DNA of 64,000 nucleotides, from the NCBI RefSeq assembly GCF_003334335.1, contig NZ_QOWQ01000025.1; one strand, 5' to 3'. Under the pieces are notes generated by a model that ran no database searches, was not told where the DNA came from, and saw only the letters and a program-made list of their open reading frames with translations. A program made the position numbers and the translations under genes. The DNA comes from Escherichia coli (GTDB taxonomy: Bacteria > Pseudomonadota > Gammaproteobacteria > Enterobacterales > Enterobacteriaceae). Below, piece after piece: positions 27,662 to 27,761 of the stretch (the stretch's first letter is position 1; each line of letters begins with the position of its first letter).

Positions 27662-27672
27662 AACGGGAAGGA

Positions 27673-27694
27673 TGCCGCTAGTTTACACTAGCGG
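27673..27694. other. Perfect palindrome GCCGCTAG-tttaca-CTAGCGGC between cargo 2 and V
   Basis: 8-bp arms with a 6-bp spacer, 12 bp upstream of the V start codon. Function unknown: mRNA stem-loop or operator. Confidence 0.3.
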
Positions 27695-27761
27695 CAAATT
27701 TTGATGCTTTGGTGAGGTATGATACAACAGACTACATTCCCCCCCTCAAATAAATCACAAT

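Follow-up and report, generated by a model that had tools for sequence, protein, structure and literature searches.

The locus raises the question of what a palindrome placed directly in front of a phage tail gene is for. The window, by which is meant the whole stretch of 64,000 nucleotides of Escherichia coli DNA that was analysed, contains a P2-like prophage in which a Pycsar defence system sits as cargo between the late genes S and V. A first-pass annotation had noticed a palindrome in the gap between this cargo and V, had linked it to the cargo insertion, and had suggested that it could be a protective 3' stem-loop for the cargo transcript, a processing site or an operator coupling cargo and tail expression.

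The hairpin and the gene V promoter

The 100-bp gap at 27662-27761 is flanked by the cargo stop at 27762 and the V ATG at 27661, and V is followed by W and then J, all on the minus strand (Table 1). The gap houses a hairpin with perfect 10-bp arms and a 4-nt loop, which reads TGCCGCTAGT-gtaa-ACTAGCGGCA on the gene strand (27696-27673). The palindrome first described is thus real, although the 8-bp arms given for it were too short by 2 bp each. Its distance of 12 nt from the V ATG was correctly stated, and relative to that codon the hairpin occupies -35 to -12. Six of its ten pairs are G-C, and the V-sense RNA folds with a free energy of -18.5 kcal/mol (z = -6.7 against shuffles). The stretch from the PycC stop to the hairpin forms no other stable structure, and a search of both strands of 27400-28000 against the covariance models of Rfam 15 gave no match at E <= 1. 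A run of 7 G at 27741-27747 of the minus strand (7 C on the plus strand) lies between the PycC stop and the Ogr box, and this homopolymer could be slippage-prone.

Perfect palindromes with 10-bp arms and loops of 3-8 nt occur three times in the 64-kb window, while Markov simulations lead one to expect about 0.3, and on window statistics alone the hairpin is only moderately unlikely to be a product of chance. The second of the three, at 44297-44321, falls within a 770-aa ORF (42103-44415) that, from its position, is presumably replication gene A; the third, at 48597-48624, is an AT-only repeat. The evidence that the hairpin is more than chance comes from comparison: dozens of related phages have conserved the structure in the same place, with compensatory changes.

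Table 1. Genes, promoter elements and hairpin at the S-V junction of the window, listed from gene R to gene V. Negative positions are relative to the V ATG.
Feature	Coordinates	Strand	Basis or remark
Gene R	30601-30134	-	
Gene S (tail completion), last backbone gene of the late O operon	29680..30141	-	
Sigma-70-like promoter TTCACA-17-TAGAAT, inside the 3' end of S	29721..29749	-	consensus match alone, 10/12
PycTM, Pycsar transmembrane effector, 179 aa	29125..29664	-	PADLOC PycTM, E = 9e-28
PycC, Pycsar cyclase, 462 aa, last co-directional gene before the hairpin	27762..29150	-	PADLOC PycC, E = 1e-128
Predicted Ogr activator-binding region of the V promoter, -69..-42	27703..27730	-	same distance from the ATG as the 'activator binding site' of P2 (AF063097)
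-35-like hexamer TTGCCG, -36..-31	27692..27697	-	overlaps the left arm of the hairpin; 17-nt spacing to CATCCT
Hairpin	27673..27696	-	inverted-repeat sequence and fold; structure conserved with covariation
Hairpin left arm TGCCGCTAGT	27696-27687	-	
Hairpin loop GTAA	27686-27683	-	
Hairpin right arm ACTAGCGGCA	27682-27673	-	
-10-like hexamer CATCCT, -13..-8	27669..27674	-	CATnnT conserved across lineages; position fits a transcription start at the ATG
Predicted +1 of the V-W-J-I-H-G mRNA (leaderless), at the A of the V ATG	27661	-	P2 annotation and identical promoter geometry
Gene V, baseplate spike, 211 aa	27026..27661	-	

The surroundings of the hairpin were interpreted by comparison with the V promoter (PV) of P2. 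The P2 GenBank record places the start of the V-operon transcript on the first base of the V coding sequence and the pV 'activator binding site' at -69 to -42 (AF063097). The window and P2 share TGTTGT at -68 to -63 (27729-27724 in the window, 68 nt from the V ATG in both), a CAnnnT -10 element at -13 to -8, the ATG as +1 and the lack of a Shine-Dalgarno sequence, none being present in the gap ahead of the window V. The earlier expectation that the Ogr-dependent V promoter would sit within this gap is therefore borne out by the spacing of TGTTGT, which at about -68 is conserved in approximately 85 sequence clusters. The activator site is of the P2 type, with partial dyad symmetry centred near -55. 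Its downstream half-site, ACCA at 27713-27710, is imperfect (ACC(A)), and the spacer is shorter than the textbook N12 of the Ogr-site consensus, TGT-N12-ACA (PMC3931495). Ogr itself, a zinc-finger protein of the form CX2CX22CX4C, is encoded in the window at about 14479-14697, within a minus-strand ORF at 14479-14760 that contains MFHCPLCQHAAHARTSRYITDTTKERYHQCQNVNCSATF...

The two promoters differ at -35 to -12, which is AT-rich and non-palindromic in canonical P2 and is taken up in the window by the GC-rich 24-nt hairpin. An ATTG at about -38 to -35 is conserved in hairpin and non-hairpin lineages alike, which supports TTGCCG as the -35 hexamer, and the first two bases of CATCCT are the last two of the right arm of the hairpin. 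A leaderless P2 gene is mentioned in PMC4633059, with reference to Christie & Calendar (1985). In the window phage, the P2-identical spacing and the absent Shine-Dalgarno sequence suggest that the V mRNA is likewise leaderless; the start site was mapped in canonical P2 only, which is without the hairpin. The leaderless P2 gene is taken to be V, in line with the AF063097 annotation. Nowhere in the literature searched is P2 gene V explicitly called leaderless.

Given a P2-type geometry with transcription starting at the V ATG, the hairpin would lie inside the PV core, would be absent from PV transcripts and would be transcribed only from upstream. This position within the core promoter of a leaderless gene had escaped the first-pass annotation. 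Two other assignments were dropped. A -10 element in the hairpin loop (TAGTGT or TATGAC) was rejected because the P2 annotation fixes the start at the ATG, and the palindrome is not an Ogr/delta box because it has the form TGC-N18-GCA rather than TGT-N12-ACA, the real box being 33 nt upstream.

The genes upstream of the hairpin include a cargo that is low in GC (approximately 0.31-0.39, with PycC at approximately 0.35) compared with the backbone (approximately 0.58). The Pycsar effector comes first, and PycTM overlaps PycC by 26 nt. PycTM starts with a GTG preceded by an AAGG Shine-Dalgarno sequence, and the sigma-70-like promoter lies about 50 nt upstream. TTCACA-17-TAGAAT, located within a structural gene, may be the promoter from which the defence cargo is expressed in the lysogen. 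No clean breakpoint marked the left cargo boundary inside S, where the alignment with S of Wphi is diffuse, with about 70% identity throughout. Near the gene A end of the prophage, a 555-aa ABC/AAA ATPase and an adjacent 333-aa partner (39193-41863, minus strand) form a candidate second defence system. The PADLOC matches of the ATPase were to NsnB, HEC-03B, PDC-M55A and an AriA-like protein (best E = 2e-51), and PADLOC gave no match for the partner or for a 259-aa ORF at the Z/fun position (21482-22261, plus strand).

Conservation of the hairpin, its strand and the orientation of the cargo

When the gap and the start of V were compared with phage genomes by blastn, homology to most P2-like phages began at about 27697, which is exactly the hairpin's outer edge. 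Neither Wphi nor a sequenced P2 isolate has cargo; both carry TGCCGCCGG-tatgac-CCGGCGGCA at 12 nt before the ATG, in an S-V gap of 66 nt, and the same outer stem recurs, in a hairpin at exactly this position, in approximately 48 IMG/VR loci whose S-V gap is also 66 nt. In cargo-less phages of the Wphi type, the hairpin begins 32 nt after the S stop. R18C, which has a different cargo, possesses the hairpin TGCTGCTGG-tatcgt-CCAGCGGCA. The outer stem is common to the window, Wphi and R18C, while the inner stem differs among them by paired changes. The exact variant of the window was found only with the same Pycsar cargo, in six complete E. coli genomes and two IMG/VR loci (L088, L093). The cargo and its junction are shared by the six genomes, among which strain ST2747 has 100% identity, and by L088.

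On this comparative evidence, the hairpin is an element of the P2-like phage backbone and not a product of the cargo. A terminator that belongs to a moron should be absent where the insert is absent; here the cargo-less phages carry the hairpin, and only the inner stem and loop variant travels with Pycsar. The link to the cargo insertion proposed in the first-pass annotation consequently falls, since Wphi and the approximately 48 cargo-less loci have a hairpin with the same outer stem in the same place. The annotation had itself named the presence of an unchanged palindrome in cargo-less P2-like phages as the observation that would speak against its proposal, and this is essentially what was found: position and outer stem are the same, but the inner stem differs. 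The reading of the locus is corrected in that a backbone palindrome says nothing special about the Pycsar cargo. A weaker hairpin is seen in 186-like (Eganvirus) phages without cargo (L100, L101 and L103), where it is shifted upstream to about -43 to -27 (GCCGCGC-gaattg-GCGCGGC). It has a conserved TTG in the loop and compensatory variants of its own, CACGC/GCGTG as against CGCGC/GCGCG.

The pattern of substitution distinguishes between the two strands. In the TGCCG family, 57 unique hairpins together have 18 U·G, 2 A·C and 1 other among the non-Watson-Crick pairs inside the stem, read on the V-sense strand. An A·C on the sense strand would be a G·U on the opposite strand. In a 30-sequence alignment, 96.7% of cells are paired in the sense direction as opposed to 90.4% in the antisense direction, and changes on both sides, which are compensatory, occur in 4 of the 9 pairs (16 cells). 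The observed covariation score was reached by none of 500 shuffles, and all slid controls scored far lower. The outer stem TGCCG/CGGCA is nearly invariant, and the inner arms vary among close relatives (CGG, TGG, TAGT, TTGG, CGA and others). These observations point to selection for an RNA helix, in transcripts that are read toward V.

The orf30/S-V locus of P2-like phages is a recognised site of horizontally acquired genes (PMC3091744). This 'moron' locus holds low-GC foreign genes between S and V, which are Pycsar here and retron reverse transcriptases, ATPases and others elsewhere; the hairpin, in contrast, lies outside the moron and is present without any cargo. The accessible papers on P2-like phage hotspots made no mention of orf30 or of a terminator or hairpin at the S-V locus. 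Two further cargoes illustrate the diversity at this hotspot. A Yersinia phage (L104, 980-2400) carries a retron-type reverse transcriptase and a regulator, which are co-directional with V and are accompanied by a strong hairpin, and E. coli phage 813R9 (L267, 135-1394) carries a divergent ATPase cargo and no hairpin.

The relation between hairpin and cargo orientation was surveyed in 251 loci, consisting of IMG/VR relatives of three V proteins together with annotated phage records. The V ATG was located in each, the segment from -45 to -1 was folded, and a minimum free energy (MFE) of -11 kcal/mol or lower was counted as a strong hairpin. Loci were clustered by their sequence at -400 to -76 so that each cargo type counted once. 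Where the upstream ORF has the same direction as V, a strong hairpin is present in 33 of 34 clusters (median MFE -16.2); where it is divergent from V, the count is 5 of 36 (median MFE -6.75). The difference is pronounced (Fisher p = 1.5e-13; Mann-Whitney p = 3e-9), but it is partly confounded, as divergent modules bring an AT-rich divergent promoter of their own into the same 25 bp. L168, which alone deviates on the co-directional side, has another hairpin a little further upstream. The five divergent exceptions have kept a hairpin of the backbone type, and the hairpin is therefore not strictly tied to need.

The orientation rule extends beyond the TGCCG family. Other lineages (L119, L128 and L164) have unrelated stem sequences at the same place, for example GAAGCAAGTAAC...GTTACATGCTTC and GGAAGCATGC...GCATGCTTCC. 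A Gegavirus pair, with 42% V identity, also obeys the rule: one member (L265) has S upstream and a hairpin, and the other (L267) has the divergent ATPase and none. Reciprocally, divergent cargo goes more often with a strong hairpin in the first 130 nt past the S stop (17 of 36 clusters as against 3 of 27; Mann-Whitney p = 0.024). Canonical P2, with its annotated O-operon terminator, is an example of this reciprocal arrangement.

Probable termination and the alternatives

An intrinsic terminator consists of a GC-rich stem of about 5-15 bp with a loop of 3-8 nt, followed by a run of U on the transcribed strand. The stem and loop of the hairpin have these properties. It also stands at the end of a co-directional unit, after PycC here and after S in cargo-less phages, and its RNA pairing is kept on the transcribed strand. 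The U run 3' of the stem is missing, for the tail AUCCUUCCCGUU is pyrimidine-rich with 3 U in its first 8 nt. A simple terminator scan of the window minus strand left the hairpin uncalled. Nor was there the extra T after the stem that is expected of a canonical terminator, the T content of the tail being the same in lineages with and without the hairpin. The tail therefore looks to be shaped by the promoter rather than by termination; AUCCUUCCCGUU is also the -10/discriminator region of PV, which probably constrains the composition of the tail. The scan called a terminator on the plus strand in this window only. An antisense terminator was rejected because the A/T-rich flank is specific to the window and the U·G bias indicates the other strand.

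The hairpin is functional, and while its kind is ordinary, its arrangement in the core of a leaderless Ogr-dependent promoter is unusually compact. It probably serves both the late O operon and the Pycsar cargo as a terminator-like hairpin at the 3' end, overlapping the PV core. Of the possibilities raised earlier for the palindrome, a 3' stem-loop for transcripts passing through the cargo is the one that matches this best-supported reading. The hairpin RNA would mark the 3' end of transcripts arriving from upstream, which are those of the Ogr-dependent late O operon (O...R-S) and here also those of the Pycsar cargo. O-operon transcripts would reach it in lytic growth, and Pycsar transcripts would probably reach it in lysogeny because of the sigma-70-like promoter at 29749-29721. 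The hairpin would stop or stabilise these RNAs a few nucleotides before the V start, and the tail genes would thus be shielded from transcription of the cargo in the lysogen and from read-through of the O operon. If the RNA were released or trimmed a few nucleotides past the stem, the upstream 3' end would abut the 5' end of the leaderless V mRNA.

Similar arrangements are known from the same operon in P2 and from another junction of the same prophage. The putative rho-independent terminator of the P2 O operon (AF063097, 9397-9433) resembles the hairpin: it is found about 30 nt past the S stop, closes the same late operon and forms a stable stem-loop in the S/V sense. Its sequence, AAACATTGAGCG...CGCTCAATGTTT, is unrelated to the window hairpin, and its location is different as well. 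The P2 terminator lies upstream of the convergent orf30 and outside PV, whereas the window hairpin is within PV. It further possesses a better U-rich tail and can act bidirectionally. The PF junction resembles PV in that the upstream unit is closed by a hairpin just ahead of an Ogr-dependent promoter, and the PF promoter fits the PV-type spacing provided that GAAAAT is the PF -10. The PF terminator, GGCGGGC-gaat-GCCCGCC followed by TTTTCTTT (21169-21205, minus strand), is canonical and lies wholly upstream of TGTTGT. In contrast, the PV hairpin lies downstream of the box, in the core promoter.

We infer that the hairpin terminates transcription rather than merely protecting 3' ends. If it served for protection or processing without termination, RNA polymerase would read through into V and stop later, for example through Rho, and the hairpin would do no more than block 3'-5' exonucleases and thereby give the S/cargo mRNA a stable end. 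The structural, strand and orientation evidence fits this explanation equally, and the weak U-tract suits it better than efficient intrinsic termination. In addition, since V lacks a Shine-Dalgarno sequence, read-through V RNA would be untranslated and exposed to Rho. GC-rich stems of 9-10 bp with loops of 4-6 nt are nevertheless typical of terminators, and protection alone, the main rival, appears possible but unlikely.

A more elaborate version of the terminator reading is speculative and, taken as a whole, improbable. The arms would have a dual use, as the -35 hexamer and -10 flank of a leaderless activator-dependent promoter and as the terminator stem of the preceding operon. In that case the release of RNA polymerase would fall within a few nucleotides of the next start, which could couple termination to initiation at PV, either by local recycling or because transcription clears Ogr, which then binds again. 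In addition, the invariant outer stem might anchor homology for swaps of defence cargo.

It is very improbable that the palindrome acts at the level of DNA, as an operator bound by a dimeric phage or host regulator or as an element that affects how Ogr-dependent open complexes form at PV, with cargo and tail expression coupled as a result. The location of the palindrome exactly over the -35/spacer region of PV would be expected of such an element, as would a nearly invariant outer stem that overlaps the promoter hexamers. A palindromic operator, however, should have conserved half-sites and a symmetry without strand bias. Instead, the inner half-sites vary freely between close phages and are always compensated, and the U·G mismatches fall on the transcribed strand (18 versus 2), which is unexpected for a site in duplex DNA. 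Moreover, divergent-cargo lineages, canonical P2 included, use the same promoter geometry without the palindrome, and other lineages have entirely unrelated stem sequences. The operator suggested in the first-pass annotation is disfavoured on these grounds.

More improbable again is a recombination landmark, in which the outer stem and the -10 region would provide the right-hand homology anchor, or a structure-specific site, for swaps of S-V cargo and would have no role in transcription. Homology between phages with different cargo does break inside or beside the hairpin, and the window-type inner stem has been found only with Pycsar cargo. Yet purifying and compensatory selection maintains the hairpin in cargo-less phages, divergent cargo modules are exchanged in its absence, and the U·G strand bias and the dependence on orientation would be left unexplained. 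A functionless chance palindrome is hardly credible: the chance expectation of about 0.3 per 64 kb leaves room for an isolated case (3 are present), but not for a position and structure conserved over dozens of lineages with covariation beyond all 500 shuffles.

Implications for the S-V hotspot

The terminator-like reading of the hairpin provides a testable rule for the S-V hotspot. Cargo transcribed toward V relies on the hairpin in the V promoter, whereas divergent cargo replaces this segment with its own sequence. The rule can be used in annotating the transcription units of P2-like prophages and in engineering payloads at the S-V site, where a co-directional payload should retain the hairpin. 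It also suggests how a constitutive defence system can sit directly before silent tail genes. Overall, the locus offers a natural example of a terminator-like hairpin that overlaps the core of a leaderless promoter and whose retention or loss follows the direction in which the neighbouring cargo is read.
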